A stretch of 64,000 nt of DNA from assembly GCA_937885465.1 (NCBI GenBank), contig CAKZZM010000154.1, positions 7,760 to 71,759 on the forward strand, given 5' to 3'. The position numbers were made by a program, and so were the translations under genes. Below are positions 6,114 through 63,835 of the stretch, in pieces; the stretch's first letter is position 1; each line of letters opens with the position of its first letter. This DNA comes from an uncultured Bacteroidales bacterium. Its GTDB lineage: Bacteria > Bacteroidota > Bacteroidia > Bacteroidales > Paludibacteraceae. Under the pieces are notes generated by a model. That model made no database searches. It saw nothing but the letters and a program-made list of their open reading frames with translations, and was not told the DNA's origin.

Positions 6114-6120
6114 ATACAAA

Positions 6121-13868: not shown

Positions 13869-14020
13869 TCCGGAGGGTCCGGAGATTCCGGAAAGTCCGA
13901 AAAGTCCGGAGATTCCGGAAAGTCCGGAAAGTCCGGAAAGTCCGAAAAGTCCGGAAAGTCCGAAGATTCCGGAAAGTCCGAAGATTCCGGAAAGTCCGAA
14001 CGCTCGGAGGCGTTCTCCAC
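13869..14020. repeat. 15 tandem 9-nt units (TCCGGAAAG and variants, 13869-14003) running into an inverted RepA (13998-14020)
   Basis: Units counted one by one. The array starts at the base after the gatZ-like stop codon and ends 10 nt before the esterase ATG. Confidence 0.95.
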
Positions 14021-19218: not shown

Positions 19219-19373
19219 AGTACCAAGTGATAAAGTACCAAGTGACGAAGTACCAAGTACCGCTTACGCTAAGGAGACGTTCTCCACTGCACTTATATCT
19301 CTCGTCTTTATAAAGTCGGCATTTAATGCCGACCAAACGCTAAAAGTCAAGTGGAGAACGTCTCCGAACGTTC
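19219..19373. repeat. mosaic RepE - partial inverted RepA - RepD (19295-19333) - RepA (19351-19373)
   Basis: Read directly between paralogues 1 and 2. Confidence 0.9.
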
Positions 19374-21131: not shown

Positions 21132-21186
21132 CAAAGTACCAAGTGACGAAGTACGATGTACGATACCGTTCGGAGACGTTCTCCAC
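21131..21186. repeat. RepE block plus truncated inverted RepA
   Basis: CAAAGTACCAAGTGACGAAGTACGATGTACGATACCGTTCGGAGACGTTCTCCAC. Confidence 0.85.
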
Positions 21187-21213
21187 TATTATAATCCTAA
21201 ATATACATTTATT

Positions 21214-24200: not shown

Positions 24201-24450
24201 ATTCACTAAGTTTACTGTTAAGAGCGACTGCCTTGAGGTTAATTCCTATACAGCCGACTCGAACGGCAATGCTACTCTTATCAATACAATGCGAGTGAAG
24301 CGTAACACTGCCCACACCGTTCCCTCTGGCTACGAAGACGTGCAGCAGCAGCGCACCATCCGCGACGGCGAGAAGTTCATCCGCGGTGGTCAAATGCTGA
24401 TTCGCAAGGATGGCAAGACCTACAATGTGCTGGGTGAGGTGGTAGAGTAA
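21214..24450 (+). CDS. secreted beta-helix + Big_2 + purple-acid-phosphatase-like metallophosphoesterase with T9SS-like tail, paralogue 3
   Basis: I prefer the ATG at 21214 (MKKLFFLLTLCTAVLCASA signal peptide) over the ORF-track start 21100, which reads through repeat sequence. Ig-like Big_2 segment VTGVSIQQDTLRVIVGQTATFTV...VSWECQD. Motifs MSDSH, PGDF, DGNHD, AHKNIF, QGHDH. Tail FIRGGQMLIRKDGKTYNVLGEVVE. Confidence 0.85.
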   Translation: MKKLFFLLTLCTAVLCASASNKYVRPDGDDSLDGKSWANAFATIQTAVWGVPAGDTVFIAEGTYNQRFSVSDGQTILGGYNAQTGERDIEMYETIIDGTDIGQYLIVKYDGPPTNHILIEGLTLQNAQHDQWGGGAIYLRDNMTVRQCHIRNCRGGTAGAIFIDHNDAATVQAVVSGCIVELCSANGCAAIYNNNGIVENCIVRGCSGKAGAIRNETAAGIVRNCVVHNNTLTGTWPNSAIYNKGLVYNCTVANNHGDQYAGIHSEGMVYNSVFWGNTNPTDFSDPANYINGSNSTHNVADEGFGKSSAYLSLTLSANNTDVAGPNFRNPTNFAGVPADDAQITSMQNADFSLTDASVALLDKAEAASATTTDITGVARPKGTGYDIGAYEYDPDAVTVAVTGVSIQQDTLRVIVGQTATFTVIITPADANNKRVSWECQDATVATIQNGIVTGLREDTTLVSVTTQDGAFTATAVLVVLPVPPVYYPVEVLAADTLYKQADYTVPSYIPFLIAKEAARIDSATAEDVTAIADKIAEMNIAIGNLVNKEEPYNMVANINGDPSMRMAFCWFTNEGITDGVVQLLAMENATADDFETNNGVITITAEATTTPALNYAVATSGIAKAAGIAGNTKFRYVSHKALADNLTAGTTYSWRVGYEGHYSDIARFRTKDAVQGEYSFLYMSDSHIQDAEYVNNAKWCAMAAVQTVPEARFCLFPGDFVETGTKSNSEWEWERWFEESIRPVIMQMPIVPTDGNHDDSENLNYDYHFNTDWGFYSMVQSHKPQFHGITYSFVYGDVLFLVYSLQDWWRASGSSAEGRLSSYLSNDVKNWFNEQIAAHPNTKYRVTLAHKNIFSGSGHSTDDEIPMFRDIMLPILKDCQIDLAIQGHDHCYEVIGPVNPDTRTLVEGAVEDVETVAVNTNTNMTGKQGGTFTTDDGTLYFIGATCGRKRYYPYSRAKMEEKYTTDPSVLYDDNHHDVENYFDLFTGMFGQPGAPSFTKFTVKSDCLEVNSYTADSNGNATLINTMRVKRNTAHTVPSGYEDVQQQRTIRDGEKFIRGGQMLIRKDGKTYNVLGEVVE

Positions 24451-26442: not shown

Positions 26443-26558
26443 GTGGAGAACGTCTCCGAACGTTCGTAGAGACATCCAGGGAGGGTGTCTCTCAATAGTG
26501 GAGAACGTCTCCGAACATTCAGATGTCAAAAGTCTGAACATTTGGAGACGTTCTCCAC
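26443..26558. repeat. RepA (26443) - RepB variant (26466-26495) - 61-nt long palindromic RepA pair (26498-26558)
   Basis: The palindromic pair is GTGGAGAACGTCTCCGAACATTCAGATGTCAAAAGTCTGAACATTTGGAGACGTTCTCCAC. Confidence 0.9.
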
Positions 26559-26628: not shown

Positions 26629-26702
26629 GTACGATTTAAGTCACTTAGTACTTCGTCACTTGGTACTTCGTCACTTGGTCACTTTCAGTAACTTTTCACT
26701 TC
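26629..26702. repeat. RepE GTAC/CACTT-rich block
   Basis: GTACGATTTAAGTCACTTAGTACTTCGTCACTTGGTACTTCGTCACTTGGTCACTTTCAGTAACTTTTCACTTC. Confidence 0.85.
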
Positions 26703-28043: not shown

Positions 28044-28225
28044 GTAGAGAACGCCTCCGAGCGTTCAGACTTAGTGGAGAACGCCTCCGAGCGTTCAGAC
28101 TTTTGACATCTGAACGTTCGGAGACGTTATCCACTGCACTTACCTCTCGTCTTTATAAAGTCGGCATTTAATGCCGACTAAAGTGTATATCTCTCGTCTT
28201 TATAAAGTCGGCATTTAATGCCGAC
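28044..28225. repeat. RepA (28044) - 61-nt long palindromic RepA pair (28074-28134) - RepD x2 (28139-28178, 28186-28225)
   Basis: Read directly between the convergent 26718 and DeoR genes. Confidence 0.95.
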
Positions 28226-28233
28226 TTTAAGTG

Positions 28234-29010
28234 TTATACCATTTTCAGCTCAATGCCGGCTGCTTTGAGGCGCGAGGGCAGACCGGTTGGTATGGCTCGG
28301 TCGGTGATGATGCAATGTATCTCAGAGGCGTTTGCTATATGGACGAAACTGCGTTTGTTGAATTTCGATGAGTCGAACACGGCGATTACCTTCGCAGCCT
28401 GTTGTATCATCTGTTGGTTGAGTAGGGCTTCTTCTAACGAAGGGGTAGAAACGCCGTTTTCTAACGAGAACGAATCTACTCCCAAAAATAACTTGTATCC
28501 GCTGAAGTTCCGCAGTACGGATATGGCGAGCGGACCGACGGTGGAATGACTGTTGACACGCACATTGCCGCCTATGAGAATAACATCGAAACGCTTATAT
28601 CGCATCAGCTCGGTGGCGATGTTCATAGCGTTGGTAATGATATGCAGGTTATAGAAATTGTCTAAGTGTCGTGCTATCTCAAGTGTGGTGGTGCCTGAGT
28701 CGAGCATGATGAAATCACCCTCGTTGATCATCTTTGTCGCTTCTTCCCCTATCCTCTCTTTTTCCTTAAAGTTAAATAACTTTTTCTTTCCGATAGAAGT
28801 GTCCTCATTCGGGTTTTCTATCGGTCGGCGCATCGCGCCTCCTCGTGTTCGAATGAGAAGGTTGCGACTTTGCAATATTGTGAGGTCCTTACGAATGGTA
28901 ACCTCTGATATGCCTGTTTCGCGACTCAGTTCTGTTACCAGAACCTCTTCTTTTTTCTCTAACTGCCGCAGGATAAGTGCCCTGCGTTCTTTTGCCGATG
29001 ATGCGTTCAT
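28234..29010 (-). CDS. DeoR family transcriptional regulator
   Basis: 258 aa. N-terminal wHTH (RRALILRQLEKKEEVLVTELSRETGISEVTIRKDLTILQ) and a C-terminal DeoR sugar-phosphate sensor domain (MLDSGTTTLEIA). Confidence 0.9.
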   Translation of the reverse strand: MNASSAKERRALILRQLEKKEEVLVTELSRETGISEVTIRKDLTILQSRNLLIRTRGGAMRRPIENPNEDTSIGKKKLFNFKEKERIGEEATKMINEGDFIMLDSGTTTLEIARHLDNFYNLHIITNAMNIATELMRYKRFDVILIGGNVRVNSHSTVGPLAISVLRNFSGYKLFLGVDSFSLENGVSTPSLEEALLNQQMIQQAAKVIAVFDSSKFNKRSFVHIANASEIHCIITDRAIPTGLPSRLKAAGIELKMV

Positions 29011-30543: not shown

Positions 30544-32496
30544 ATGAAAAAAGTCTTTTATCTATTATCTTTAACTGTTGCGGTCTTAAGTCTGACTGCG
30601 TGTCAGCCGAAGGCGGATAGTGGTGAACGCCTCCGAGCGTTCGACACCGAACGGCTGATCTGCGCGGAAGCGGATATGCAGGCGTTCCCGTATCAGCAGA
30701 AGGGCTTGCATGTGGTAAAGCAGCAGACGGTACGGAATGTTGACGGCGTGCCGGGATTGCAGGTGATCCAGACGCAGTTCATCAATATAGGCAAGCCTGT
30801 GATGGTCAGAGCCTACGAGCTATGCCGCACAGAAATTGAGCCGAAAGATACAGTTGTATGGTCGCTACAGCCGAGCAGCACGGCGGCACGTATGGACTGG
30901 GTGCTGCCCGTTACGCAGGGATTCAGCAAGCAGAACTACCTTGGCATGAACAACTCCGACTACGGTGGTGGCATACCTGTGGTTGACCTGTGGCAGCGTG
31001 ACGGCGGTGAGGCTATCGGGTTGTTTGAGCCGGTGCTGCGGATGATTTCAATGCCCGTGGAGTGGAAGCGCTATGATAACAAAGTGACGATGGCACTCCG
31101 TTATGATCTGCCGGAATCGGTAGAACTGGCAACTGGTGACACGTTGCGTTGCTATAAGGCGTTCCGCTACAAGCATACGGGTGATTACTTTACCGCCCTG
31201 CGTACGTTCTCGGAGTATATGCAGGCGAACGAAGGGGTGGTGATGAGGCCATCTGAGCCGGAAGCGTTTGAACCCGTTTGGTGTGCGTGGGGATATGGGC
31301 GTCCGTTCAAAATGGATATGGTATTGGGTACGTTGGACAAGGTTGCCGAATTAGGTTTCACTTGGGTGGATATAGACGATGGCTACCAGATTGCGGAGGG
31401 CGACTGGAATACGAACGAGTATTTCCCTGGCGGTGACAAAGATATGCGTCATATAACGGACGAGGTTCACAGGCGCGGTATGAAAGCCAAACTATGGTGG
31501 GCACCATTGGCGGCTGACCCGGATACGAAGTTGGTGAAAGAGCATCCCGAATATCTGCTCAAGACCGAGGAATGGGCACACGAGTATATCACGTGGTGGG
31601 ACAGCTGGTATCTGTCGCCTGTTAATCCGGGTGTAGATGCCTATACGACTGACCTGCTGAAGATGTTTATCGACCGTTGGGGATTCGATGGCTTGAAGAT
31701 TGATGGTCAGCATCTGAACTGCTGTCTGCCCGACTATAACGAGACGTCAGGGCTGAATGACCCTTGGGAGGCGCCCGAGCAGATGCCGACATACTTTGGT
31801 AAGATATACGAGCAGACTCGTGCCATGAAGCCAGATGCTGTTATTCAGGTTTGTCCCTGCGGCTGCGCAGTGAACTATTGGCTGCTGCCGCAGATCAACC
31901 AAGCCGTGGCATCCGACCCGATGAGTTCGCGTCAGGTGCGAATGAAACGCAAGGCTTACGCAGCTATGGCACCGGATCTGGCATACTACGGCGACCATGT
32001 GGAACTGACGGATGGCGGCAATGATTTTGCTTCGCAGATAGGTACGGGTTCGGTTATCGGAACGAAGTTCACGTGGCCGAAGGACAACCCCGACTGGAAC
32101 GAAGGTCCGTTCCTGCTCACGCCGGAGAAAGAACAACTGCTCCGCAAGTGGATGAAGATTTACAAGGAAAATAACCTTGCCCGAGGCGAATACATGAACC
32201 TCTATACGTGGGGTTTCGACTATCCTGAGGCGCATGTGATAAGAGTTGAAAGTCCGGGCAGAGCCCTAAAGTCGAAAGTCGAAAGCGCAGGGGAGGCGAT
32301 GTACTATGCGTTCTATACCGATGATCAACCCTTCAGCGGTATAATAGAGTTACGCGGAATAGAGGCAGGCAAGACTTATACTGCCACAGAGTATGCAGCC
32401 GATGAACCGCGTGAGTTCGAGGTGGACGGCAGCAATCCGAAGATAGAGGTGAACTTCGAGCGGAGTTATCTGCTGAAAGTAGTAGAAAAGTGGTGA
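30544..32496 (+). CDS. alpha-galactosidase-like glycoside hydrolase lipoprotein (clan GH-D, GH36/GH27-like) with two in-frame repeat insertions
   Basis: Lipobox LSLTAC. Catalytic-domain blocks WCAWGYG, FTWVDIDDGYQ, KAKLWWAPL, FDGLKIDGQH. Repeat-encoded SGERLRAF lies just after the lipobox, and VESPGRALKSKVES lies near the C-terminus. Confidence 0.78.
   Translation: MKKVFYLLSLTVAVLSLTACQPKADSGERLRAFDTERLICAEADMQAFPYQQKGLHVVKQQTVRNVDGVPGLQVIQTQFINIGKPVMVRAYELCRTEIEPKDTVVWSLQPSSTAARMDWVLPVTQGFSKQNYLGMNNSDYGGGIPVVDLWQRDGGEAIGLFEPVLRMISMPVEWKRYDNKVTMALRYDLPESVELATGDTLRCYKAFRYKHTGDYFTALRTFSEYMQANEGVVMRPSEPEAFEPVWCAWGYGRPFKMDMVLGTLDKVAELGFTWVDIDDGYQIAEGDWNTNEYFPGGDKDMRHITDEVHRRGMKAKLWWAPLAADPDTKLVKEHPEYLLKTEEWAHEYITWWDSWYLSPVNPGVDAYTTDLLKMFIDRWGFDGLKIDGQHLNCCLPDYNETSGLNDPWEAPEQMPTYFGKIYEQTRAMKPDAVIQVCPCGCAVNYWLLPQINQAVASDPMSSRQVRMKRKAYAAMAPDLAYYGDHVELTDGGNDFASQIGTGSVIGTKFTWPKDNPDWNEGPFLLTPEKEQLLRKWMKIYKENNLARGEYMNLYTWGFDYPEAHVIRVESPGRALKSKVESAGEAMYYAFYTDDQPFSGIIELRGIEAGKTYTATEYAADEPREFEVDGSNPKIEVNFERSYLLKVVEKW
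30620..30642 (+). repeat. RepA (GTGGTGAACGCCTCCGAGCGTTC) in frame, 5 codons after the lipoprotein Cys
   Basis: Translated as SGERLRAF. Confidence 0.9.
32245..32285 (+). repeat. RepG-RepC-RepG unit in frame in the alpha-galactosidase
   Basis: GTTGAAAGTCCGGGCAGAGCCCTAAAGTCGAAAGTCGAAAG is translated as VESPGRALKSKVES. Confidence 0.85.
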
Positions 32497-32573
32497 ACGT
32501 CTCCGAACGTTGCACCTTCGTACATCGTACATTGTCACTTTGTACATTGTACATTGTCACTTTGTACATTGTA
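32490..32573. repeat. RepA variant containing the alpha-galactosidase stop codon, then a TGTACAT heptamer array
   Basis: GTGG-TGA-ACGTCTCCGAACGTT (TGA at 32494-32496), then ...TACATTGTCACTTTGTACATTGTACATTGTCACTTTGTACATTG. Confidence 0.9.
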
Positions 32574-35572: not shown

Positions 35573-35624
35573 CGAATTACGTATTGCATAAATTACTGAA
35601 TTAATGAGTTAAAGATTGATCATT

Positions 35625-37376
35625 ATGAAAACGAAACTTATATCCGTCTTTATAAAGTCGGCATATAATGCCGACAAAAGTCTGAACGTTCTCAGACGTT
35701 CTCCACTAAGTCTGAACGTTCTCAGACGTTCTCCACTATATTTAACCGTGGCATTTGCTATTATGCTTGGTTTCCAGAGTTGCGATCTCGAATACTTCCC
35801 TACTGACGAGTTAAATTCGAGTGGTTTTTTAGCAGACGAATCCGGAGCACAATATGTGATTGACGGTTGTTACGCGATGCTCAAGGAGGAATATGCGTAC
35901 ATTGAGTATGCATCAAGTAATACTTATGTTCGTCATTATATGCAGATGGCAGAGTTTCCTGCGGACAATACCTGCTTATCAGGACGTACAACAGACCCTT
36001 TGTTCCAGGCAACATGCTATACTATGACAGACAATTTGAAGAATGTCGGCCTCTTTTGGTGGGTAGGATACAAAGTAATCTTTACGGCTAATACTATCAT
36101 TGAAAGCTATGCAGAGGGGAAATCCCAAGAGTGTGACCAACTACTTGGTGAGGCATATTTCCTACGCGCTATGTGTCACTTCCAATTAGCCACAATCTTC
36201 TCTAAGCCATATAGCCATGGTCGTGATAATCTTGGCATAGTGCTTCGTACAAGCACAAATACCGAAGAGACTCATCGTGCTACTGTTGGCGAGGTATATG
36301 ACCAGGTTGTAAAAGATTTGCAGAAGGCTGCAAGTCTGATGAACAAATCTCGTGGCAATGCAGGCTATGCTTCCAAGAACGCTGCGTTGGGGCTGCTTAG
36401 TCGAGTATATCTCTACATGGAGGAAAACCAAAAGGTGATTGACGTAATTGCCGAGATGGGCGACCCTATTGCTAATCTTGATCCTGACTACGCCACTTAT
36501 TTTGCCAATGCGCTGAAGAGCAAGGAGACCCTCTTCTGCGTAGCGCACACAACTCTTGAAGACCGCGGTCAAGCAAGCATCGGCAGCATGTACAACAACG
36601 ACCCGAATGGTAAAGGATGGGGAGAGGTGTATGCGAGTGATCCTCTACTTAATCTTTATGAACGTTATCCGGACGATATACGTTTAAGTTATATTAAACC
36701 GCAATATGCAGGTAGCAAGAATATGGTATATTTTTCGATACCTGATGCTACAGGATCAAGTGTTGACTTATGGGCTGATGTAAAAGCAGATAGCGAGGGT
36801 AACTACTGCGAGATTGACGGCAACAAGTACCGCATCAATGATGAATTGGTAAATGGTGAATACACTGCGCATTACGTAACGTATGAAGGTAAGAAATGTA
36901 GTGCGCGTCTGACAAAGACGATGACGCAGCGCAATACGTTTCCAAACTATTTTGTAACCAAATTCGGCTATCAGGACGGCAAGCCGCAATTATCCTCGCC
37001 GGTATTCCTGCGTTGGGGTGAGGTTGTGCTTAATCGTGCTGAGGCTAACGCTAAACTGGGTAATGATGATGCCGCCCTTGCAGACGTTAATGCTATACGT
37101 AGGCGTGCCGGTATTCCCGCAGAAGGAGAGTTTGCTGCCGGCAAGATGCATGGCTACACGTCTGTTTTGGATGTCGTGCTTGACGAACGGCGCATGGAGT
37201 TGGCGTTTGAGGGACACCGAATGTTCGATGTATATCGCAACAAACGCAACATGGATCGCCAATTCGGCGGAGTACATCCGTGGGAGATTGTTAAATACGA
37301 TGATCCAAAGATTCAATATCCTATTCCCTATGGTGAGTGGTCTGTTAGCGGAATACAGCAGAACCCGGGATACTAA
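35625..37376 (+). CDS. SusD/RagB family nutrient-binding lipoprotein with a repeat insertion in the signal-peptide n-region
   Basis: Follows SusC by 52 nt. Lipobox MLGFQSCD. TPR-like body with a typical C-terminal region (LDERRMELAFEGHRMFD). ATG at 35625; the ORF-track start 35616 is a TTG. Confidence 0.9.
   Translation: MKTKLISVFIKSAYNADKSLNVLRRSPLSLNVLRRSPLYLTVAFAIMLGFQSCDLEYFPTDELNSSGFLADESGAQYVIDGCYAMLKEEYAYIEYASSNTYVRHYMQMAEFPADNTCLSGRTTDPLFQATCYTMTDNLKNVGLFWWVGYKVIFTANTIIESYAEGKSQECDQLLGEAYFLRAMCHFQLATIFSKPYSHGRDNLGIVLRTSTNTEETHRATVGEVYDQVVKDLQKAASLMNKSRGNAGYASKNAALGLLSRVYLYMEENQKVIDVIAEMGDPIANLDPDYATYFANALKSKETLFCVAHTTLEDRGQASIGSMYNNDPNGKGWGEVYASDPLLNLYERYPDDIRLSYIKPQYAGSKNMVYFSIPDATGSSVDLWADVKADSEGNYCEIDGNKYRINDELVNGEYTAHYVTYEGKKCSARLTKTMTQRNTFPNYFVTKFGYQDGKPQLSSPVFLRWGEVVLNRAEANAKLGNDDAALADVNAIRRRAGIPAEGEFAAGKMHGYTSVLDVVLDERRMELAFEGHRMFDVYRNKRNMDRQFGGVHPWEIVKYDDPKIQYPIPYGEWSVSGIQQNPGY
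35641..35736. repeat. RepD (35644-35675) + two inverted RepA copies (ending 35706 and 35736; period 30) in codons 6-38 of SusD
   Basis: Translated as SVFIKSAYNADKSLNVLRRSPLSLNVLRRSPL. Confidence 0.92.
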
Positions 37377-38475: not shown

Positions 38476-38585
38476 CGAAGCGCTTACGCTACTTAAATTG
38501 TATTTAAATTGTATTTAAATTGTATTTAAATCGTATTTAAATAGCGATAGCGGTACATAGCGTAAGCGGTACATCATACTTCGTT
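38476..38585. repeat. RepE words flanking four tandem 11-nt units (TGTATTTAAAT)
   Basis: CGAAGCGCTTACGCTACTTAAAT(TGTATTTAAAT)x3 CGTATTTAAATAGCGATAGCGGTACATAGCGTAAGCGGTACATCATACTTCG. Confidence 0.85.
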
Positions 38586-40955: not shown

Positions 40956-41047
40956 GTGGAAAACGCCTCCGAGCGTTCATATTTCTCGTCTTTATAAAGT
41001 CGGCATTGAATGCCGACATCCGGAGTGGAGAACGTCTCCGAACGTTC
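40956..41047. repeat. RepA (40956, C:G variant) - RepD (40979-41017) - RepA (41025-41047)
   Basis: Read directly. The same A-D-A order occurs at 8358-8449. Confidence 0.95.
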
Positions 41048-41770: not shown

Positions 41771-42895
41771 ATGTATCGAGTAAAAATATTACTTTTAGTG
41801 CTTTGTTCAGTGGTGCTTAGCACTATATCTGCTTTAGAACGTTCGGAGACGTTCTCCACTATATCTGCTGCTCCACCGCTTATCTTTAATGGTGATACGC
41901 TGCCGAAGAACACGGATTTTAAGAAGAGTCAGTGCGGCACGTTGAAAACATCTGCCACGATAAGCGAGGTGTCAGGTATTGCATGCTCTCGCCTGACGCC
42001 CGGGTATATATGGATGGAGAGCGATGACTATCGTAATGTCATAGCAACAGACGAAAAAGGGAAGACGCGCTATATGAAACTGCTGTTTCGCGGTCTGCCT
42101 GACAGGTGGGATTGGGAAGATATGTGCGGAGGCGTATATGAGGGAGTAAACTATCTCTTTGTGGGTGCCTTTGGCGATAATAATGAGACAACCGGAAATT
42201 ACTATATTATCTATTTCGAAGAACCGGAGGTGACTTCTTCACAGACGTATATAGTGGATGCCTCGTATATTCATTTTGCCTATCCCGATGGCAAGAAGCA
42301 TAATGCGGAAGCTTTGATGTATGATAATCGTGAGCAAATGCTTTATGTCATAACAAAGGTATATTACGATGTGTGTCAGGTGTTTAGTCTGCCGATGAGT
42401 CATGATTACGGTGAAGAGGAACAGACATTGACATATATTTGTGATTTAGGGTTAAAGTCCGATCTCGGGAGTGACGGGATGCATGGTTTCCATTTAGTGA
42501 CGGCTGCGGATATCTCACCTGATGGCAGGTATATCCTTATCAAGAATCATAATAATAATATTGCCAGTTACTCGTATGTGTTATTGTGGCAAAGGGAAGC
42601 AGATGAGAGCGTGAGCGATGCATTGATGCGCCAGCCTGAGCAGATAGGTTGCTACTCCTACGAGTGGCAGGGTGAGGCGATGTGTTGGCTCGATTCCACC
42701 ACTTTCTATACTACCTCTGACGAAGATTCGGGTGACCCGCCTATCTTTAAGTATGTCAAGACACCGCCGTCGGCGGTTGAAGAAGTGGAGGCATTAGAAG
42801 ATGATAATGCTCGGATAAAGTTGTTGTTTAATAAAGGAAACCTCTATATTCGCAAGAACAACCGACTCTACAGCTTAGATGGTAGAGAGGTTTAA
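41771..42895 (+). CDS. secreted hypothetical protein with T9SS-like tail; RepA inserted in the signal peptide region
   Basis: 374 aa. [36 protein letters not shown]... Tail LLFNKGNLYIRKNNRLYSLDGREV. No confident family. Confidence 0.6.
   Translation: MYRVKILLLVLCSVVLSTISALERSETFSTISAAPPLIFNGDTLPKNTDFKKSQCGTLKTSATISEVSGIACSRLTPGYIWMESDDYRNVIATDEKGKTRYMKLLFRGLPDRWDWEDMCGGVYEGVNYLFVGAFGDNNETTGNYYIIYFEEPEVTSSQTYIVDASYIHFAYPDGKKHNAEALMYDNREQMLYVITKVYYDVCQVFSLPMSHDYGEEEQTLTYICDLGLKSDLGSDGMHGFHLVTAADISPDGRYILIKNHNNNIASYSYVLLWQREADESVSDALMRQPEQIGCYSYEWQGEAMCWLDSTTFYTTSDEDSGDPPIFKYVKTPPSAVEEVEALEDDNARIKLLFNKGNLYIRKNNRLYSLDGREV
41821..41869. repeat. inverted RepA flanked by a 13-bp direct duplication
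   Basis: CACTATATCTGCT (41821-41833) + TTAGAACGTTCGGAGACGTTCTC (41834-41856) + CACTATATCTGCT (41857-41869). Period 36 nt = 12 codons. Confidence 0.9.
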
Positions 42896-42906
42896 TTAGA
42901 ATGTTA

Positions 42907-42988
42907 GTGGAGAACGTCTTAGAACGTTCGGAGACGTTCTCCACTATTTTATCGCGGACGAGCCGTCCGCGTCCCAGACGTTCTCCAC
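42907..42988. repeat. full palindromic RepA (42907-42944) followed by RepF (hairpin GCGGACGagccGTCCGC) ending in a RepA tail
   Basis: GTGGAGAACGTCTTAGAACGTTCGGAGACGTTCTCCAC, then TATTTTATCGCGGACGAGCCGTCCGCGTCCCAGACGTTCTCCAC. The same A-F unit is at 46749-46815. Confidence 0.92.
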
Positions 42989-43093
42989 TATTGTTTTTTA
43001 GGTTGATAAAGTTTAAGTTGATGATTGTGTTTTATTTTTTAGAAGGCTGCTCGATGTGAATCGGGCAGCCTGCGTATTTAAGTGAGAACGTTT

Positions 43094-45073
43094 TCAGACG
43101 TTCTCCACTAATGTCATCTCGCAGCGTTGGCAGTCTGTTTCAATGCGGAGGAGAGTATCGGCATGCCGTATATAAGCGGGTGTTTTTTGTTTGCTTGTGG
43201 TCTTCTTTTTTTTGCAGCAGTTCATCTCGTAGAGAATGCAATATTTGCAGGTCATCAATGGCGAGGGGTGAGAGTGGAGAGTGGAGAACGTCTGAGAACG
43301 TTCAATAGTGGAGAACGTCTCTGAACGTTCGGAGACGTTCTCCACTGTTGAGAGACGGTGAAAAACACCGTCTCTACCACGTTCGGAAGTGCTCTCTACA
43401 GAAGACGATGTTTGCTGTGCCTCAGAGCGGCTTTGCGGATGGCATTTCGACACTTGGTACTCAGTGATGAATTTTTCGACTGCTTTCCGGCGCCAATCGT
43501 TAAGTACGGAGGTACGAAGGAAATAGGGCGTTTGCCATTGAATGATGATTTCATCAGCAATAAGCGGTGTCCCGCCGAGTTTGGCTAACTGCTGTCTGAC
43601 TATGGTCTCTGCCCGTTCTGCATTTTCCGCCGCTTCGTGCGATGATTCAAAGTGAGAAGTCGCGGACGAGCCGTCCACGCCCCATTTCGCGGACGAGCCG
43701 TCCACGCCCCAGACGTTCACCACGCGGGAGTGTGCCGTTCTGATAGTTATGTCGAAACCTGCGTTTGTAGCACTGAAAATGATGCTGACGGGCAGGAGTC
43801 GCACAGCAGCATTATTCTGCATCAGAGTGCGGTTGAATTCTGCATCGAAGTTTCGGTAAACAGGTGTTCCCTCTTTTATCTTACCCATACCGTTGCTTGT
43901 GGAGAACGTCTGAGAACGTTCGGAGACGTTCTCCACTAATAAGTCTGAACGTTCAGAGACGTTCGCTACTGCACTCGAACGTTTAGAGACGTTCGCCACT
44001 GCGCTCGAACGTTCAGAGACGTTCGCCACTGCTGACCAGTAGCAGCCTTGTCCGTTGAAGGTCAGGCCATCGCCGTTGTGCATTGTTTTGCCGCGCAGCA
44101 AGCCTTGTGGTAGTGGGGCATAGCCTATTAGTTCGCCGGTGGATTTGGGCGTTTGTCGATTGACGAGGTTGTGGGGGCGTTCAAGCGAGAAGTATTCGGT
44201 GGAGCCGCGGTGGAAGGTCTTGACGGGGTCGGGCGTGAAGTTGAGTATTACTCGTCCGCGTGAGGTGCGGCTGACCCCGATGTCGTTGAGCAGTAAGTTG
44301 TAGTAGGCGGTGATATTTTTCACATAATCGATATCTTTCAAACGCCCCTCTATCTTAAGTGTTGTAACGCCTGTATCAAGCAGTTCTCTAAGATGGGCGG
44401 AGCGGTCGAGGTCGTAGAGCGAGAGTATATGTTGCTCTTTGGCAATCACTTTTTTGTCTTTGTCAAGTATGTCGTATGGCAGTCGGCACATCTGTGCACA
44501 TTCGCCTCTATTGGCTGACCTGCCGCATACTGCTTCGCTGAGGTAGCATATGCCCGAATAGCAGACGCATAAGGCACCATGTACAAACGCCTCTAATTCG
44601 CAGGTGGTGACGGCGCGTATCTCTGCCATCTGTTGGTACGATAGTTCTCGTGCAAGTACCACTCTGCTGAAGCCGAGTTGCTCAAGTGCCTGCACCTTCT
44701 CTGCCGTGCGGTTGTCGCATTGGGTGGAAGCATGAAGGCGAAAACCGGCTTGCAATAGTGTTTGAGCAAGGCGCATATCTTGAACAATAAGGGCATATAC
44801 TCCCGCTTCTCTGCATTGATACGCTATGCTCACTGCCTCGCCATACTCGTCTTCGCGCAGTAAAGTGTTGAGAGTAACTAATACTCTTGCATCCCAAAAA
44901 GAGGCATAGCGGACTAACTCCGCTATGTCCTCTATGCTGTTCCCCGCTGCTTTTCTTGCGCCGAAGGCGGGGCCACCTATATAAACGGCATCTGCACCGG
45001 CATCAATAGCAGCCTTGCCGACGGTTACATTCTTAGCCGGTGCGAGCAGTTCGATTTGTTTATCTCCTATCAC
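43094..45073 (-). CDS. peptidase U32 family protein carrying several in-frame repeat insertions
   Basis: GTG start at 45073 overlapping the flotillin stop. The N-terminal 330 aa are clearly U32 (IELLAPAKN...AGADAVYIGGPAFGARK...VHGALCVCYSGICYLS...CAQMCRLPY). Repeat-encoded stretches are listed below. The stop codon lies inside a RepA variant. Confidence 0.8.
   Translation of the reverse strand: MIGDKQIELLAPAKNVTVGKAAIDAGADAVYIGGPAFGARKAAGNSIEDIAELVRYASFWDARVLVTLNTLLREDEYGEAVSIAYQCREAGVYALIVQDMRLAQTLLQAGFRLHASTQCDNRTAEKVQALEQLGFSRVVLARELSYQQMAEIRAVTTCELEAFVHGALCVCYSGICYLSEAVCGRSANRGECAQMCRLPYDILDKDKKVIAKEQHILSLYDLDRSAHLRELLDTGVTTLKIEGRLKDIDYVKNITAYYNLLLNDIGVSRTSRGRVILNFTPDPVKTFHRGSTEYFSLERPHNLVNRQTPKSTGELIGYAPLPQGLLRGKTMHNGDGLTFNGQGCYWSAVANVSERSSAVANVSKRSSAVANVSERSDLLVENVSERSQTFSTSNGMGKIKEGTPVYRNFDAEFNRTLMQNNAAVRLLPVSIIFSATNAGFDITIRTAHSRVVNVWGVDGSSAKWGVDGSSATSHFESSHEAAENAERAETIVRQQLAKLGGTPLIADEIIIQWQTPYFLRTSVLNDWRRKAVEKFITEYQVSKCHPQSRSEAQQTSSSVESTSERGRDGVFHRLSTVENVSERSETFSTIERSQTFSTLHSHPSPLMTCKYCILYEMNCCKKKKTTSKQKTPAYIRHADTLLRIETDCQRCEMTLVENV
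43273..43380. repeat. RepA x3 + RepB inside the 3-prime part of the U32 gene
   Basis: RepA at 43281 and 43308, inverted tail to 43345, RepB 43346-43380. Encodes (minus strand) [33 protein letters not shown]. Confidence 0.9.
43659..43723. repeat. RepF x2 in tandem inside the U32 gene
   Basis: CGCGGACGAGCCGTCCACGCCCCA twice. Encodes WGVDGSSAKWGVDGSSA on the minus strand. Confidence 0.85.
43899..44030. repeat. five RepA-derived units inside the U32 gene, three of them as a 30-nt tandem array
   Basis: Encodes [47 protein letters not shown] on the minus strand. Confidence 0.9.
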
Positions 45074-48898: not shown

Positions 48899-48914
48899 CA
48901 GGTCTAATTTGTCC

Positions 48915-48968
48915 TTTGTACATTGTACATTGTCCATTTGTACATTGTACATTGTCCCTTTGTACATA
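48915..48968. repeat. TGTACAT-based tandem repeat (22-nt unit TTTGTACATTGTACATTGTCCN, about 2.4 copies)
   Basis: Read directly after the gpmI stop. Confidence 0.85.
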
Positions 48969-48973
48969 ATTTG

Positions 48974-49252
48974 ATGCGTCGATTAGATAAATACTCAGTA
49001 GGAATAGTGCTTGGCTTGCTATTGCCGGCACTGTTCTGCTATGTATATATATCGAGGTTTAATCTGTGGGGTGTATTGAAAGCATTTGACTTCTCCGCCA
49101 ACAGTGTGCTGAGCAAAATGATGATGCTATCGGTGTTTCCTAATATGGCGCTGCTCTTTCTCTTTTATGAGATGGACCTATGGCGTTTGGCGAAGGGAGT
49201 GTTGATAGGTGCCTTCCCGTATATTATTGCTGCTATTTGGTTTACTATATGA
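48974..49252 (+). CDS. small membrane protein (92 aa, about 3 TM), translationally coupled to lpxB
   Basis: MRRLDKYSVGIVLGLLLPALFCYVYI... Its stop overlaps the lpxB ATG (ATGA at 49249-49252). The ORF-track start 48923 lies in the tandem repeat. Confidence 0.5.
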   Translation: MRRLDKYSVGIVLGLLLPALFCYVYISRFNLWGVLKAFDFSANSVLSKMMMLSVFPNMALLFLFYEMDLWRLAKGVLIGAFPYIIAAIWFTI

Positions 49253-50673
49253 CGGTATTCCTTATAGCAGGTGAGGCATCGGGCGACACGCATGCTGCCC
49301 GACTGATGCAGGCAATGAAAGTATTGCAAAGCGATATCCGCTTTGTCGGATTAGGCGGTGATGCGATGAGACGCGAGGGAGCGGTGCTCTATCAAGACTA
49401 CCGTGAGATGGCTTTTATGGGGATATTTGCCGTGCTGAGCAATTTGAGTAAGGTGAGGCGTAATTTCAAGATTGCCCGCGAAGCACTGCTGAAAGAGAAG
49501 CCGGATGTGCTGATATTGATTGATTATCCCTCGTTTAACCTGCGGATGGCGCAGTTCTGCCGTGAGCATCTGCCTGCTACTCGTATCGTCTATTATATCC
49601 CGCCCAAAGTATGGGCATGGAAGCGCTGGAGAGTACATAAGATTGCTCGTCTGTGTGACGAGGTGTTAGGTATATTCCCTTTCGAACCGGATTTTTACTC
49701 GCGATATGGTTACAAATGTACTTATATAGGCAATCCTACAGTGGAGGAGGTAACGAGTACAGAGTGGAGAACGTCTGAGAACGTTCAAAAAAAGGCGGAG
49801 AGGGCAGGGGAAGAAAGCGATTTAGCGAACGGCAATTCGAGAATTATCGCTGTTCTGCCGGGCTCTCGGCGAAGTGAGATAGAACATTGTCTGCGAAAAA
49901 TGGTTGAAGCCGCACAATTGGCAGCACCCGGTTATGATATTGTTGTGGCAGGTGCTGAGGGGCAAAGCAGAGAATTATATGAGCAACAACTAAAAATATC
50001 CGGGGGGTTGGACCCCTCCGCTCCGTCAAGAGACAGTGGAGAACGTCTGAGAACGTCTGGCGGTAGATACGGTGGAAAACACCATCTCTCAAATAGTGGA
50101 GAACGTCTGAGAACGTCTGGCGACTCTGCACCAAAGGTGAGGGTGGTGTTTGGCAGTACTCATGATATATTAAGGCAGGCGGACGCTGCTATTATCAATT
50201 CGGGAACGGCAACGCTTGAGGGTGCATTGCTAAGGTGTCCGCAGGTGGCTGTATATCATATCGCTGTGCCTCACGCTATATTATTTAGCAGGTTGTTGTT
50301 CAGCAGTCCGTATTTTACTCTGCCTAATATCCTGCTTCAGAGAGAGGTAATCTCGGAACTGATAGGTTACCGATTTACGGTTCAGCGAACGGCAGATGAA
50401 CTGAGGAAACTATTGCAAACTGATGAAAGACAGTGGCGAATGTCAGAGAACGTTCATAACTCTCGTCTTTATAATGTCGGCATTAAATGCCGACGTTTGG
50501 AGCGGAGCTCGTCTGAGAACGTTCAAAAAGAGTCCTCCGCTCCTTTCGGGACCGGCGAGACCGAGAGCGCGAGACAAAGGCAATTGCAAGGCTATGAAGA
50601 GATAGCAAATATGCTTGGAAAGCAAAACGCCGCGGAGACTGCTGCAAAAATTATACTGAAACATCGAGAGTGA
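49249..50673 (+). CDS. lpxB: lipid-A-disaccharide synthase LpxB with three in-frame repeat insertions
   Basis: Collinear with E. coli LpxB as I recall it: IAGEASGD, DYPSFNLR, IPPKVWAWKRWR, LPGSRRSEI, SGTATLE, LPNILL. It is 474 aa versus about 380 for typical LpxB. The excess maps to RepA/RepB/RepD sequence. Confidence 0.85.
   Translation: MTVFLIAGEASGDTHAARLMQAMKVLQSDIRFVGLGGDAMRREGAVLYQDYREMAFMGIFAVLSNLSKVRRNFKIAREALLKEKPDVLILIDYPSFNLRMAQFCREHLPATRIVYYIPPKVWAWKRWRVHKIARLCDEVLGIFPFEPDFYSRYGYKCTYIGNPTVEEVTSTEWRTSENVQKKAERAGEESDLANGNSRIIAVLPGSRRSEIEHCLRKMVEAAQLAAPGYDIVVAGAEGQSRELYEQQLKISGGLDPSAPSRDSGERLRTSGGRYGGKHHLSNSGERLRTSGDSAPKVRVVFGSTHDILRQADAAIINSGTATLEGALLRCPQVAVYHIAVPHAILFSRLLFSSPYFTLPNILLQREVISELIGYRFTVQRTADELRKLLQTDERQWRMSENVHNSRLYNVGIKCRRLERSSSENVQKESSAPFGTGETESARQRQLQGYEEIANMLGKQNAAETAAKIILKHRE
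49764..49786 (+). repeat. RepA (loop variant CTGAGA; 5-prime TAG changed to GAG) in frame in lpxB
   Basis: GAG TGG AGA ACG TCT GAG AAC GTT CAA = EWRTSENVQ. Confidence 0.92.
50036..50117 (+). repeat. RepA-RepB-RepA composite module in frame in lpxB
   Basis: Translated as [29 protein letters not shown]. It is near-collinear with the module at 17827-17909, including the junction GAACGTCTGGCGGTAGA. Confidence 0.92.
50431..50527 (+). repeat. degenerate RepA - RepD - degenerate RepA in frame in lpxB
   Basis: CAGTGGCGAATGTCAGAGAACGTTC + TCTCGTCTTTATAATGTCGGCATTAAATGCCGAC + ...GTCTGAGAACGTTC. Translated as QWRMSENVHNSRLYNVGIKCRRLERSSSENVQ. Confidence 0.88.
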
Positions 50674-50736: not shown

Positions 50737-51822
50737 ATGTTACTACTTTTTATATTTTTAATTTCAGCATTAGTTATTTCTTTTCTATGCTCTATCTTAG
50801 AGTCTTCGCTTCTCTCGACCACTTTTTCGTATTTGCAGATGAAGGAGGATGAGGGCGATAAGGCTGCTGTGCGATTGAAGCAGTACAAGCAGGAGAGTGA
50901 GCGTCCGCTCGCTGCTATCCTGTCGCTGAATACGATAGCAAACACTATAGGTGCTGCCGGCATAGGACAACAGGCAACATTAATCTTCGGCAGTAAGTGG
51001 TTTGGCTTGGTATCGGCAATAACAACTATTCTTATTCTTGTTTTTTCAGAGATTATCCCAAAGACCATCGGTTCTACTTATTGGCGATCGCTCACCGCTT
51101 TTACTGCTAATACTCTTAGGGTGCTGATTTTTATTATGTTCCCTGTTGTGTGGTGTGTGGAAAAGATAACTCAGATGATAACGCCGAAAGATGCCGAGGA
51201 GGCGTCCGTATCAAGAGAAGAAGTGAGCGCAATGGCGAATGTGGGAGAAGAAGAGGGAGTGTTTGATGAGGATGAGAATAAGATTATTCAGAATATCATT
51301 AAGTTGGACGATGTTAAGGCTTACGATATTATGACACCTCGCGTCGTTTGTGCTACGGCACCGGAAACGATGACTCTGCAAGATTTTTATAAAGAAGACC
51401 GCTATGATCACTTCTCTCGTATCCCCGTATATGCTGACTCTCCTGAGTTTATCACGGGTTATGTACTTCGTTCTGATGCGCTTGAGATGCTGGCAGAGGA
51501 TAAGTTCCATATTCGTCTTGGTGATATTAAGCGTCCTCTGCCTTACTTCAATGAGGAGACCGCTATACCCGATATATGGGACGCGCTGATAGAGCATAAG
51601 GAGCAGATTTCCATCGTTATTGATGAATATGGTGCGATGCAGGGAATATTAACGCTTGAAGATGTAATCGAAACGGTCTTCGGACTGGAGATTACCGACG
51701 AGAACGATCAGTTCACTGATATGCAGCAGTATGCCCGTGAGCGTTGGCAGCAGAGGCAAAAACGCTTCCAGACGGTCAGCATTCCGAAAGTAGAAAGTGA
51801 AAAGTTGAAAGTTGAAAGTTGA
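50737..51822 (+). CDS. CNNM/DUF21 transmembrane + CBS-pair domain protein (HlyC/CorC-type transporter family)
   Basis: The N-terminal 4-TM DUF21-like region ends in SEIIPKTIG, followed by two CBS motifs. The last about 11 codons (KVESEKLKVES) and the stop lie in a RepG heptamer array. Confidence 0.85.
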   Translation: MLLLFIFLISALVISFLCSILESSLLSTTFSYLQMKEDEGDKAAVRLKQYKQESERPLAAILSLNTIANTIGAAGIGQQATLIFGSKWFGLVSAITTILILVFSEIIPKTIGSTYWRSLTAFTANTLRVLIFIMFPVVWCVEKITQMITPKDAEEASVSREEVSAMANVGEEEGVFDEDENKIIQNIIKLDDVKAYDIMTPRVVCATAPETMTLQDFYKEDRYDHFSRIPVYADSPEFITGYVLRSDALEMLAEDKFHIRLGDIKRPLPYFNEETAIPDIWDALIEHKEQISIVIDEYGAMQGILTLEDVIETVFGLEITDENDQFTDMQQYARERWQQRQKRFQTVSIPKVESEKLKVES

Positions 51823-51947
51823 AAGTTGAAAGTGCGGGCAGAGCCCTAAAGTAGATGGTAGAGATGGTCTTTTCGACCGTCTCTCAAGGAAGTCAGGGCG
51901 GATTCCTAAAGTGGATGGTAGAGACGGTCTTTTCGACCGTCTCTCAA
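51786..51947. repeat. RepG heptamers (GAAAGTT x4) - RepC - RepB (51857-51887) - RepC-like - RepB (51917-51947)
   Basis: Read directly. One RepB copy has a G:T wobble (GAGATGGTC/GACCGTCTC). Confidence 0.92.
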
Positions 51948-52477: not shown

Positions 52478-52574
52478 GAACGTTTACAGACGTTCTCCAC
52501 AGCACTTATATCCGTCTTTATAAAGTCGGCATTGAATGCCGACTAAAGTCCGAACGTTCAGAGACGTTCTTCAC
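52478..52574. repeat. inverted RepA (52478) - RepD (52505-52543) - inverted RepA (52552-52574) overlapping the 3-prime end of the HMA gene
   Basis: Read directly. The stop codon of the minus-strand HMA gene (52558-52560) lies in the RepA loop. Confidence 0.92.
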
Positions 52575-52977
52575 TTTGCGGAATGGAGGCTCCGGAATCG
52601 GCATCGGTTTCCGTTTGTGTGTTCAGTTTTTGCTCTTTGGCAGGCGAAGTCGCGCTTGCATTTGTCTTGCTTTGTGTCAGTGCTTCTGTGGCGGCGGTAT
52701 TGACTGTGGCGGGTTTGCCGATGGCTTTGAACGCCTCTTGCAGGGTTCCGATATCGGTTTTGTTAGCATCATAGACAATGGTTACCTGCTTTTTGTCAAG
52801 GTCGCAGATGAGGTCTTTCACGCCTTTCTCAAAAGCGATATTTTTCTCTATTTTTTTGATGCAGGCATCGCAGTGTAGCTCTACATCGAACACGATTGTC
52901 CGTTTGTCTGTCTTAGCGGCAAAAAGAGTGCTAAGAGATAGGGCAATAGCACAGAGTGTTGTAAGGAAATAACGCAT
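52558..52977 (-). CDS. secreted heavy-metal-associated (HMA) domain protein
   Basis: Signal peptide MRYFLTTLCAIALSLSTLFA. HMA fold with a CxxC metal site (VELHCDACIKKIEKNI). Low-complexity tail. The last residues (SEERL) are encoded by RepA. Confidence 0.8.
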   Translation of the reverse strand: MRYFLTTLCAIALSLSTLFAAKTDKRTIVFDVELHCDACIKKIEKNIAFEKGVKDLICDLDKKQVTIVYDANKTDIGTLQEAFKAIGKPATVNTAATEALTQSKTNASATSPAKEQKLNTQTETDADSGASIPQSEERL

Positions 52978-57856: not shown

Positions 57857-58035
57857 GTAGAAAGTCGATAGTAAAAAGTCGATAGTAAAAGTCGAAAGCC
57901 CCGCAAACGCAAATCGTGTTCCGGCTTTCGACTTTCTTAATAGTGGAGAACGTCTCCGAACGTTCAAACTTTCAACTTTCAAACTTTCAACTTTCAACTT
58001 TCGGCTTTCAACTTTCAACTTTCAACTTTCAACTT
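57857..58035. repeat. RepG words and hairpin (57891-57932), RepA (57943-57965), then about 10 tandem heptamers ACTTTCA
   Basis: Read directly. GTCGAAAGCC...GGCTTTCGAC forms a 10-bp stem after the TonB stop. Confidence 0.9.
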
Positions 58036-61510: not shown

Positions 61511-61691
61511 TCTTCGCTGGTAGTGGAGAACGTCTCCGAACGTTCGCAAGCGGTACTTGGTCACTTGGTACTTGGTACTTAGTACTTGGTCACTTGGTGT
61601 TTTTTTTGCTTGCGTAACCCGATTTTTATTATTAATTTTGCAAACTCTTCGCTGGTAGTGGAGAACGTCTCCGAACGTTCGCAAGCGGTAC
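61511..61691 (+). repeat. 46-nt perfect direct repeat (61511-61556 and 61646-61691), each containing RepA, flanking a RepE block and a -7 box
   Basis: TCTTCGCTGGTAGTGGAGAACGTCTCCGAACGTTCGCAAGCGGTAC occurs twice, 135 nt apart. Confidence 0.95.
61633..61640 (+). promoter_or_regulatory. -7 box TAatTTTG for the acyl-CoA ligase gene
   Basis: Exact match 100 nt upstream of the ATG at 61740. The second 46-nt repeat copy would lie in the 5-prime UTR. Confidence 0.4.
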
Positions 61692-63496: not shown

Positions 63497-63568
63497 CAAA
63501 GTGGCATTATTGAAAATCAGTTTGTTGCAAAGAAAGTTCATTTTTTTTCAAAAAAAATCGGGTAAAAA

Positions 63569-63600
63569 TTTGGTGGGTTTGAAAAAAAGTAGTAATTTTG
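63569..63600 (+). promoter_or_regulatory. promoter candidate TTTG-N20-TAatTTTG with no ORF downstream
   Basis: TTTG at 63569-63572 and TAATTTTG at 63593-63600. Confidence 0.5.
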
Positions 63601-63606
63601 CACTCG

Positions 63607-63835
63607 CTTTTGAAAAGAGAGGCACTCGAATGTCAGTGTGACGATAGCAGTCAGTGAGATGACGAAATAGTAGAGAACATCTCCGAACGTTCAACAACAG
63701 GAGTGTTTTCGGAGTAAAAAGCGAGCCACAGTGGTGGCACCCGTACTGAAGCGCTGGAAACCGCACGATATATGCTGAGGTGTACATCGGGAAAACAGCA
63801 GGCCGACGAACTACTCAACTACGGTAGTTTTTTTT
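63607..63835 (+). ncRNA. candidate about 230-nt noncoding transcript or riboswitch-like leader (unidentified class)
   Basis: Lies between the promoter candidate and a hairpin AACTAC...GTAGTT + T8 (63810-63835). No plus-strand ORF over 25 codons. Long-range pairing CTCGCTTTT (63603-63611) / AAAAGCGAG (63716-63724), and hairpin GCCACagtgGTGGC. Contains a degenerate RepA (63670-63692). Confidence 0.3.

Follow-up and report, generated by a model that had tools for sequence, protein, structure and literature searches.

How a conserved enzyme gene can be read without interruption through sequence that recurs as dispersed repeats is the question raised by one open reading frame (ORF) in a 64,000-nucleotide stretch of contig CAKZZM010000154.1 (assembly GCA_937885465.1), from an uncultured bacterium of the family Paludibacteraceae, order Bacteroidales; the whole of this stretch is referred to here as the window. 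The ORF encodes a protein of the peptidase U32 family, and a first-pass annotation, made from the letters of the window, had reported four repeat blocks read in frame and a gene end inside a repeat. The sequence, Tandem Repeats Finder (TRF), and a scan for repeat units agree with that report, and the peptides that it quoted (SAVANVSERS, SAVANVSKRS, SAVANVSERS, and the rest) are all present in the translation. We favor, with a probability of about 0.85, the explanation that a functional RlhA-type U32 gene has been invaded by lineage-specific, very short, REP-like palindromic repeats and that the inserts are disordered passengers. The observation is real and the interpretation placed on it is right; the phenomenon is of a kind already known and is not categorically new. 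What is distinctive is the repeat load, which at ~17% of codons is the highest in 700 sampled ORFs, together with the tiny modular unit, the host lineage, and the contrast in period and frame between coding and noncoding copies.

Integrity of the U32 gene

Pfam places Peptidase_U32 (PF01136) at residues 83 to 301 (E = 2.8e-63; profile positions 7 to 232 of 233) and DUF3656 (PF12392) at residues 405 to 537 (E = 2.2e-16), the latter match setting 133 residues against 106 profile positions because the second of the four blocks lies inside the domain. Homologs, mostly 553 to 610 amino acids long, come from metagenome-assembled genomes of Paludibacteraceae and other Bacteroidales, and in alignments with 16 and with 65 orthologs the protein aligns from end to end, including a C-terminal domain whose cysteines are conserved (MTCKYCILYE..CCKK..TDCxxCEM). 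The first-pass annotation had itself allowed for a C-terminal half devoid of homology; the DUF3656 match and the alignment of the cysteine domain exclude this. Residues E161, C169, C176, C612, C620, C648, and C651 are invariant in 66 sequences, H165 occupies an invariant alignment column, and C609 is conserved in at least 90%. An AlphaFold2 model built on the 66 sequences has a mean predicted local distance difference test (pLDDT) score of 83 and a predicted template modeling (pTM) score of 0.84, with the C-terminal domains at pLDDT values above 90. Its N-terminal fold is a TIM barrel resembling that of the U32 protein Mk0906 (5d88, rank 4 in a Foldseek search of the PDB), the other matches being to generic TIM barrels only; a sequence search of the PDB returned no match.

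In E. coli, RlhA (YdcP) is a factor for the hydroxylation of 23S rRNA at C2501 (ho5C2501) and is the only protein in which DUF3656 is found; its activity requires C169, C176, and two C-terminal cysteines and is nearly abolished by the substitution E161A (PMC5727448). The protein described here shares with RlhA the architecture of U32 domain, DUF3656, and C-terminal cysteine cluster and conserves E161, C169, and C176 under identical residue numbers; it differs in carrying ~100 to 113 extra repeat-encoded residues at four sites. Against the NCBI curated models, none named for RlhA was matched, and the paralogous families TrhP, UbiU, and UbiV gave subthreshold matches only. The designation RlhA-type is given by architecture and not by a curated equivalog, and the enzymatic function is a prediction from sequence. 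The gene begins with a GTG that shares bases with the TGA stop of an upstream Band_7/flotillin gene (GTGA, 45070-45073), which suggests translational coupling in an operon; the two genes stand in the same order in a second strain (L001).

These features bear on the proposition that the gene is a decaying pseudogene whose ORF, after an ancestral truncation, happens to continue through repeats that lack stops. Spurious extension is possible in principle, as only one of the six frames of the repeat consensus has a stop, but the proposition is highly improbable: DUF3656 and the CxxC...CC...CxxC domain are conserved and in frame 3' of every block, the C-terminal domains are confidently modeled, most differences between strains in the core leave the amino acid unchanged, and the gene ends where its orthologs end, so that the ortholog alignment refutes it.

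Four repeat blocks in one gene

The blocks, itemized in Table 1, are built from a 25-nucleotide (nt) unit, RepA, and from two hairpin modules, RepB and RepF. Within the window, GGAGAACGTCT has 61 matches at up to one mismatch (0.79 expected), and the RepF core has four (0.02 expected). Block 1, annotated in the first pass as a 30-nt tandem array of RepA, is recovered as such by TRF (43914-44032, period 30, 3.9 copies) and stands in place of ~5 to 10 residues in orthologs; private variants held in common by its three-unit array suggest duplication in place. Block 2 had been described as two RepF units, which is correct as far as it goes (TRF 43660-43711, 100% match), the RepA "handle" that precedes them having been overlooked. 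The span given earlier for block 3 (43273-43380) stands and has been lengthened by ~20 nt through a degenerate RepA unit, because the RepA-RepB-RepA composite recurs at four other sites in the window; the predicted fold of this block has an energy of -37.6 kcal/mol (z = -8.7). The TGA stop does lie within a RepA variant, as had been claimed. This fourth block adds no length and swaps out the last few codons: orthologs stop 4 to 7 residues past the conserved CEM motif, as does the U32 protein. By coordinates, ~103 to 113 of the 659 codons are repeat derived, in line with the earlier figure of roughly 100. The RepA-derived parts are all read in the frame that encodes a hydrophilic peptide, and the sequence runs across block junctions as YWSAVANVSER, NVWGVDGSSAK, and TFSTLHSHPSPL.

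Table 1. Coordinates of the U32 gene, its repeat blocks, and other repeat features (window positions unless a locus is named)
Feature	Position	Strand	Description
U32 + DUF3656 + C-terminal Cys-cluster gene (RlhA-type)	43094..45073	-	659 aa, GTG start, 1980 nt
Block 1	43899..44030	-	132 nt, 44 codons; five RepA units
Block 1, variant RepA units	44007-44030, 43977-44000, 43947-43970	-	30-nt period; unit scan
Block 1, perfect RepA unit	43914-43937	-	Unit scan
Block 1, inverted RepA unit	43899-43921	-	Central GAACGTTC in common with perfect unit; unit scan
Block 2	43661..43723	-	RepA handle + two RepF modules; encodes VVNVWGVDGSSAKWGVDGSSA in DUF3656 loop
Block 2, RepA handle GTGGTGAACGTCT	43711-43723	-	13 nt, one mismatch
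Block 2, RepF hairpin modules GGGGCGTGGACGGCTCGTCCGCG	43661-43710	-	Two identical 23-nt modules, 27-nt period
Block 3, composite	43273..~43400	-	Linker before C-terminal Cys domain
Block 3, degenerate RepA	43379-43400	-	16/22 nt; peptide VESTSER
Block 3, RepB hairpin	43347-43378	-	
Block 3, RepA	43323-43346	-	
Block 3, inverted RepA	43306-43330		
Block 3, second inverted RepA	43280-43303		Followed by short CTCCACT echo
Block 4	43086..43110	-	RepA unit of GTCTGA variant; last four codons (VENV) and TGA stop (43094-43096)
Intergenic repeat cluster	42905..42990		Just 3' of gene; RepA inverted pair + RepA-handle/RepF composite
Copies of hairpin family AAGTCGGCATTNAATGCCGAC	6093-6115, 8399-8421, 19313-19335, 28158-28227, 35655-35675, 40997-41019, 50474-50496, 52523-52545		
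Micro- and minisatellites	13867-13998, 10864-10923, 57967-58035, 51786-51833, 32516-32573, 48909-48967, 38493-38542, 19215-19261, 26640-26684, 61552-61598		
ORFs with repeat-linked stops (examples)	4690-5964, 15433-16410, 30544-32496, 52558-52977; loci L088, L099, L105, L109, L123, L127		

A comparison with orthologs and a structure prediction were among the checks proposed in the first pass. Blocks 1 to 3 are confined to the strain cluster and missing from every ortholog outside it (at most 66% identity), where few or no residues occupy the corresponding positions, and in these columns the other orthologs carry unrelated length variation of their own. In the AlphaFold2 model, pLDDT falls below 50 only at residues 360 to 391, 450 to 466, and 556 to 599, which correspond to blocks 1, 2, and 3 and are disordered in an otherwise confident model. 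Taken with the alignment columns, these values identify the blocks as excursions from loops or from an interdomain linker. A scan of GTDB species representatives yielded orthologs of ~42% full-length identity or less and one partial match of 54% over the N-terminal half. The intergenic cluster just 3' of the gene is the noncoding counterpart of the intragenic blocks.

Comparison with a 99%-identical strain

Two further assemblies (L001 and L002), ~99% identical to the window, contain a 1980-nt gene with all four blocks and matching flanks; the assemblies compared were the window, ERZ922529 k127, and ERZ842392 NODE. Misassembly classically arises at short repeats, and the sequence is of metagenomic origin, but there is a negligible chance that the blocks are artifacts or chimeras arising from collapsed short repeats, since three independent assemblies agree on the 1980 nt, the four blocks, and their flanks, and the units are far shorter than sequencing reads.

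Within the U32 gene, the window and the second strain differ at 19 nucleotides. Outside the blocks there are nine synonymous and five nonsynonymous differences, and inside them there are none and five, respectively (Fisher p = 0.033); the first-pass annotation had called for such a comparison of flanking with inserted sequence. The numbers are small, and the direction of the contrast is that which a constrained enzyme with unconstrained passenger peptides would be expected to show.

Directly past the stop codon, at the variable site 43086..43094, the second strain carries an additional RepA unit of 33 nt. The unit beside this indel also shows several differences, in a setting of unique flanks that are ~99% identical; the repeats therefore turn over faster than their surroundings. 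Close by, the intergenic inverted pair of RepA units at 42909-42942 differs between the strains at three loop positions, the L001/L002 strain having a perfect palindrome, CTGAGAACGTTCTCAG, and the window CTCCGAACGTTCTAAG; this suggests that copies were converted or replaced by a templated process and that point mutation was not the cause.

A contingency locus, at which slippage changes copy number and so generates phase or length variation, would also possess tandem arrays such as those of 30 and 27 nt in this gene, and the one-unit indel just outside it also speaks for such a locus. We consider such a role very improbable, because intragenic copy number is equal in the two strains, the array units have already diverged (85% matches by TRF), and the product is a cytoplasmic enzyme of the RNA modification type and not a surface antigen.

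The repeat family

RepA is a sharply bounded 25-nt unit, TAGTGGAGAACGTCTCCGAACGTTC, of which there are 565 copies in 929 kb of sequence (~0.6 per kb). This sample consists of the window and 865 kb of loci sharing RepA, obtained by an exact 23-mer scan of a metagenome collection; the scan returned 102 stretches, nearly all in the contig series FLNU01002328-2544. The repeat-sharing loci do not overlap the window save for one 221-nt stretch, and we infer that they derive from the window's genome or from a very close one. RepA was found neither in the loci of the nearest relatives nor in 80 GTDB species loci, and the family is lineage-specific. Rfam searches at gathering thresholds gave one tRNA only, so that the repeats match no curated RNA family, and a literature search with the repeat sequence found unrelated primers only.

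The system is modular, since RepF usually follows a common 13-nt RepA handle, GTGGAGAACGTCT, and the composite of handle and RepF recurs 37 times in the 929 kb. A single RepA unit is predicted to form a weak hairpin (-4.4 kcal/mol) and an inverted pair a strong one (-22.3 kcal/mol; z = -9.3). Adjacent pairs in the same orientation at 26 to 30 nt number ~124, versus 13 overlapping inverted pairs. Copies of the RepB hairpin at 17850-17885, 50060-50095, 26470-26500, 8335-8360, and 43347-43378 differ from one another by matching changes on both stem arms (GAGACGGTG/CACCGTCTC, GATACGGTG/CACCATCTC, and GAGACATCC/GGGTGTCTC), which suggests selection on structure and a hairpin that matters either for propagation or for a role as RNA or DNA.

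Other repeats are also present. A second dispersed hairpin family, AAGTCGGCATTNAATGCCGAC, gives 17 strand hits in the window (none expected), is often preceded by CTCTCGTCTTTATAA, often adjoins RepA units, and forms a 47-nt tandem pair at 28144-28234. Many intergenic micro- and minisatellite arrays with periods of 7, 9, 11, 15, and 22 nt, often beside RepA units, include AGTCCGGAA (14.7 copies), AACTTTC (9.7 copies), TTAAATTGTAT (4.5 copies), and GTACATT/TTGTACA arrays; the genome is unusually rich in several unrelated classes of short repeats. The stretch shared with the repeat-sharing loci (63502-63722 and L112:14332-14552) is noncoding, AT rich, and 99% identical, contains a degenerate RepA unit, and is the only match of the window in the 865 kb; it may represent a leader or promoter present in several copies, such as one preceding an rRNA or tRNA operon.

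Selection on insert length and frame

For a census of RepA copies, genes were called by a long-ORF heuristic of our own with a codon usage check on both flanks. Intergenic sequence, which makes up 12% of the total, contains 59% of the units, and RepA is ~15-fold denser between genes than in coding sequence. Of 351 clusters, 241 are intergenic, 60 lie at 5' edges or are uncertain, 8 lie at 3' ends, and 42 are internal and bordered on each side by coding-like sequence. At least one unit is present in 101 of the 700 sampled ORFs; the U32 gene, with nine, has the most.

The first-pass annotation had taken the 30-nt period of block 1 to suggest amplification constrained to multiples of three. For adjacent units on the same strand, spacings deep in ORFs are 27 nt in 33 cases, 30 nt in 4, and 24, 26, and 28 nt in 1 each, whereas intergenic units are spaced at 26 nt (6 cases), 27 nt (16), 28 nt (33), 29 nt (4), 30 nt (4), 31 nt (3), 21 nt (1), and 33 nt (1). 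Multiples of three thus account for 38 of 40 spacings (95%) deep in ORFs and 22 of 68 (32%) between genes (Fisher p = 2.7e-11). The constraint is upheld, but arrays of 26 to 31 nt also exist between genes, and the 30-nt period is not created by coding: the array period belongs to the repeats, and coding sequence keeps in-frame periods only.

Reading frame is likewise uneven. Counted per cluster, 49 are read in the hydrophilic-peptide frame, 14 in the frame that gives GERLRTF/TFGDVLH, and 12 in the third (p = 3e-8). The RepA consensus has a stop in one of six frames only, a TAG at the 5' edge of the unit that blocks the third frame in one orientation, and the excess of the first frame is not due to stops; it may reflect either selection for the most hydrophilic peptide or target preference. 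The U32 ORF is indeed open, as first described, although the lack of a stop or frameshift is less remarkable with a consensus of this composition. Stop-freeness as a significant property of the unit was considered and rejected, as a 25-mer with no more than one stop in six frames is expected about one-third of the time by our estimate.

Other genes and repeat-supplied stops

Units of RepA are also carried by genes for LpxB, an SIS protein, a metallophosphatase, and a SusD homolog, with all three frames in use overall. In lpxB (49180-50673, plus strand), RepA peptides EWRTSENVQ and SGERLRTSG are read in the two other frames, a RepB-like hairpin is included, and a copy of the AAGTCGGCATTNAATGCCGAC hairpin family at 50474-50496 is read as NVGIKCRR; the Pfam match to LpxB is split into two stretches. 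Two adjacent metallophosphatase paralogs (16510-19218 and 21100-24450, both on the plus strand) provide a built-in comparison with and without the insert: the first has a RepA array of ~45 amino acids and a second unit read as GERLRTFSDVLH, and the second has NNGVITITAEA at the array site. The SusD homolog (35616-37376, plus strand) has two 30-nt RepA units (35678-35738) in its N-terminal region, read as SLNVLRRSPLSLNVLRRSPL, between the initiator region and a hydrophobic segment ending in the lipobox cysteine; the units are tolerated by the signal peptide, or else translation truly starts downstream. In the gene at 41771-42895 (plus strand), a single inverted RepA unit (41822-41868) lies just past the hydrophobic core of the signal peptide and is flanked by a 12-nt direct duplication, ACTATATCTGCT (STISA...STISA), the last bases of which run into the end of the unit itself; no other clear flanking duplication was seen.

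A RepA unit contains or adjoins the stop codon in 25 of the 700 sampled ORFs, and 18 of these stops are TAG or TAA (once TGA) at the unit's 5' edge. Three genes, the U32 gene among them, end in VENV* by way of the GTCTGA variant. Such repeat-linked stops would be expected if genes tolerate insertions in their last codons and one of the frames carries a stop of its own. They also agree with the tendency of REPs to adjoin the 3' ends of ORFs, where REPs are thought to act as RNA elements (PMC3733652).

The placement of units at the stop codons of 25 ORFs is one of several observations that would suit functional inserts, that is, peptides serving as new, flexible linkers or as interaction segments, or RNA or DNA structures within genes that tune translation, mRNA stability, or termination, kept by positive or purifying selection. 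The strong hairpins predicted for the inverted pair and for block 3 are others, as are the matched stem changes in RepB and the retention of perfect 24-mers by 28% of intragenic units. On balance we judge this explanation unlikely, given that intragenic units are further from the consensus than intergenic units (1.61 versus 1.18 mismatches; p = 0.001), that all five strain differences within the blocks alter an amino acid, that the units are depleted in coding sequence and occur in unrelated proteins at unrelated sites in three frames, and that the inserts are modeled as disordered.

Proposed history of the gene and its implications

We propose that repeats of the RepA family have entered the U32 gene on at least four occasions, RepB and RepF being modular hairpin partners joined to the RepA handle. 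The repeats would spread across the genome by a process at the level of DNA, would be amplified locally as head-to-tail arrays, and would turn over quickly between strains. Selection would remove most insertions into genes, so that surviving copies would be those with a length that is a multiple of three, clear of the TAG-bearing frame, mostly in the hydrophilic-peptide frame, and situated in a loop, in a linker between domains, or among the final codons. The peptides that they encode would be disordered passengers and not functional parts, and at the 3' end of the gene a repeat variant would have replaced the last four codons and brought a stop of its own. The data show the identity of the repeats, their reading in frame, the placement of the blocks relative to orthologs, a selective filter on spacing and frame, and purifying selection on the core; how the repeats move, that the peptides are neutral, and what the enzyme does are inferences.

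Several points weigh against this account. A search of ORFs of at least 90 amino acids in the 929 kb with a crude regular expression for RAYT/HUH and Y..NPV-type motifs, made without a profile search, found no match; a self-BLAST of the same sample, which is part of the genome, found no multicopy element of at least 300 nt; and 207 isolated units show no target site duplication of 4 nt or more. The frame bias could be a preference for insertion sites and not selection on the peptide, the census relied on gene calls from a long-ORF heuristic, the strain comparison comprises only 19 substitutions, and the databases hold no relative between 66% and 99% identity by which the insertions could be dated or ordered.

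A bolder and rather doubtful proposal is that RepA, RepB, and RepF constitute an undescribed class of ultrasmall (~25-nt) modular mobile elements of Bacteroidales, built from a 13-nt handle and interchangeable hairpins, independent of RAYT, evolved to be translationally benign, with one stop-bearing frame only and a favored frame that encodes a disordered, hydrophilic peptide, and still active, as the gain or loss of units and their replacement between strains 99% identical might indicate. If this were true, elements of such a size could colonize up to ~14% of sampled ORFs, the essential lpxB included, and would routinely rewrite C termini and stop codons.

Under the favored explanation of passenger repeats in a functional gene, the locus is a natural experiment on insertion tolerance, in which a conserved enzyme gene accommodates ~17% foreign, predicted-disordered sequence at four sites under purifying selection on its core. 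A single family can be followed between genes, where it is unfiltered, and within them, where it is filtered, and provides a direct readout of selection on insert length and frame. Gene callers are misled by genomes of this kind because repeats open in five of six frames extend ORFs; low-complexity inserts inflate protein family alignments, and many stops here are supplied by repeats. The visible strain polymorphism offers a system in which to study how REP-like elements with no known transposase spread.

Relation to known repeat systems

The uptake signal sequences of Haemophilus and Neisseria are short, abundant motifs that occur within genes with a frame bias toward tolerated peptides; they originate in situ through point substitutions and leave the number of residues unchanged, whereas the blocks described here add residues relative to orthologs, and an uptake-sequence-like origin is ruled out. 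The SDRs of heterocyst-forming cyanobacteria, reportedly described by Elhai et al. in Genome Research in 2008, are said to be repeats of 21 to 27 nt that, like RepA, are mobile-looking elements of ~24 nt with sharp boundaries, nested in repeats and present inside conserved genes without destroying them; phylum and sequence differ. Miniature inverted-repeat transposable elements span 70 to 300 bp and have terminal inverted repeats and target site duplications, and a 25-nt unit whose isolated copies lack such duplications does not belong among them.

RepA resembles REPs in being a short palindromic unit of very high copy number that is mostly intergenic. The GTAG- and CGTC-tagged REPs (Di Nocera et al. 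2013) are palindromes of 20 to 40 bp with hundreds to thousands of copies, mostly intergenic near the 3' ends of ORFs, and in several phyla they also lie within genes as singles, dimers, and clusters encoding 20 to 82 amino acids, sometimes twice in one gene; those with the CGTC tag have no dedicated transposase and are reported in Bacteroidetes (PMC3733652). Tagged REPs possess an unpaired GTAG or CGTC tag, a stem of 8 to 9 bp, and a loop of 4 to 5 nt, and RepA has none of these: its consensus contains CGTC inside the paired region only and no GTAG. Membership of the CGTC family is ruled out, since tag and stem geometry do not fit. Head-to-tail dimers are negligible among CGTC REPs (PMC3733652) and head-to-tail arrays dominate in RepA, in which inverted dimers are not predominant as they are in REPINs. 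The design of one handle with alternative hairpins is not described for tagged REPs in PMC3733652.

Along with intragenic REPs, the closest known parallel is with the Rickettsia palindromic elements (RPEs; Ogata et al. 2000), the hallmark of which, according to PMC10969869 and PMC3733652, is palindromic repeats read in frame within housekeeping genes. RPEs and RepA both occur in frame in many unrelated housekeeping genes with the ORF kept, and they share insertions compatible with the fold, passenger peptides, repeated hits on one gene, and a lineage-specific family. The first RPEs described (such as RPE-1) are ~100 to 150 bp long and each encodes a conserved peptide, whereas RepA is 25 nt (8 codons) long and forms blocks in which units are arrayed in tandem, paired in inverted orientation, or combined with other hairpins; the RPE host is an obligately intracellular alphaproteobacterium and the RepA host a free-living member of the Bacteroidales from bioreactors; and RepA has no sequence similarity to RPEs. 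RepA thus works like RPEs without belonging to RPE families, and it extends the phenomenon of RPEs and intragenic REPs to an uncultured lineage of Bacteroidales with an unusually small, modular unit.

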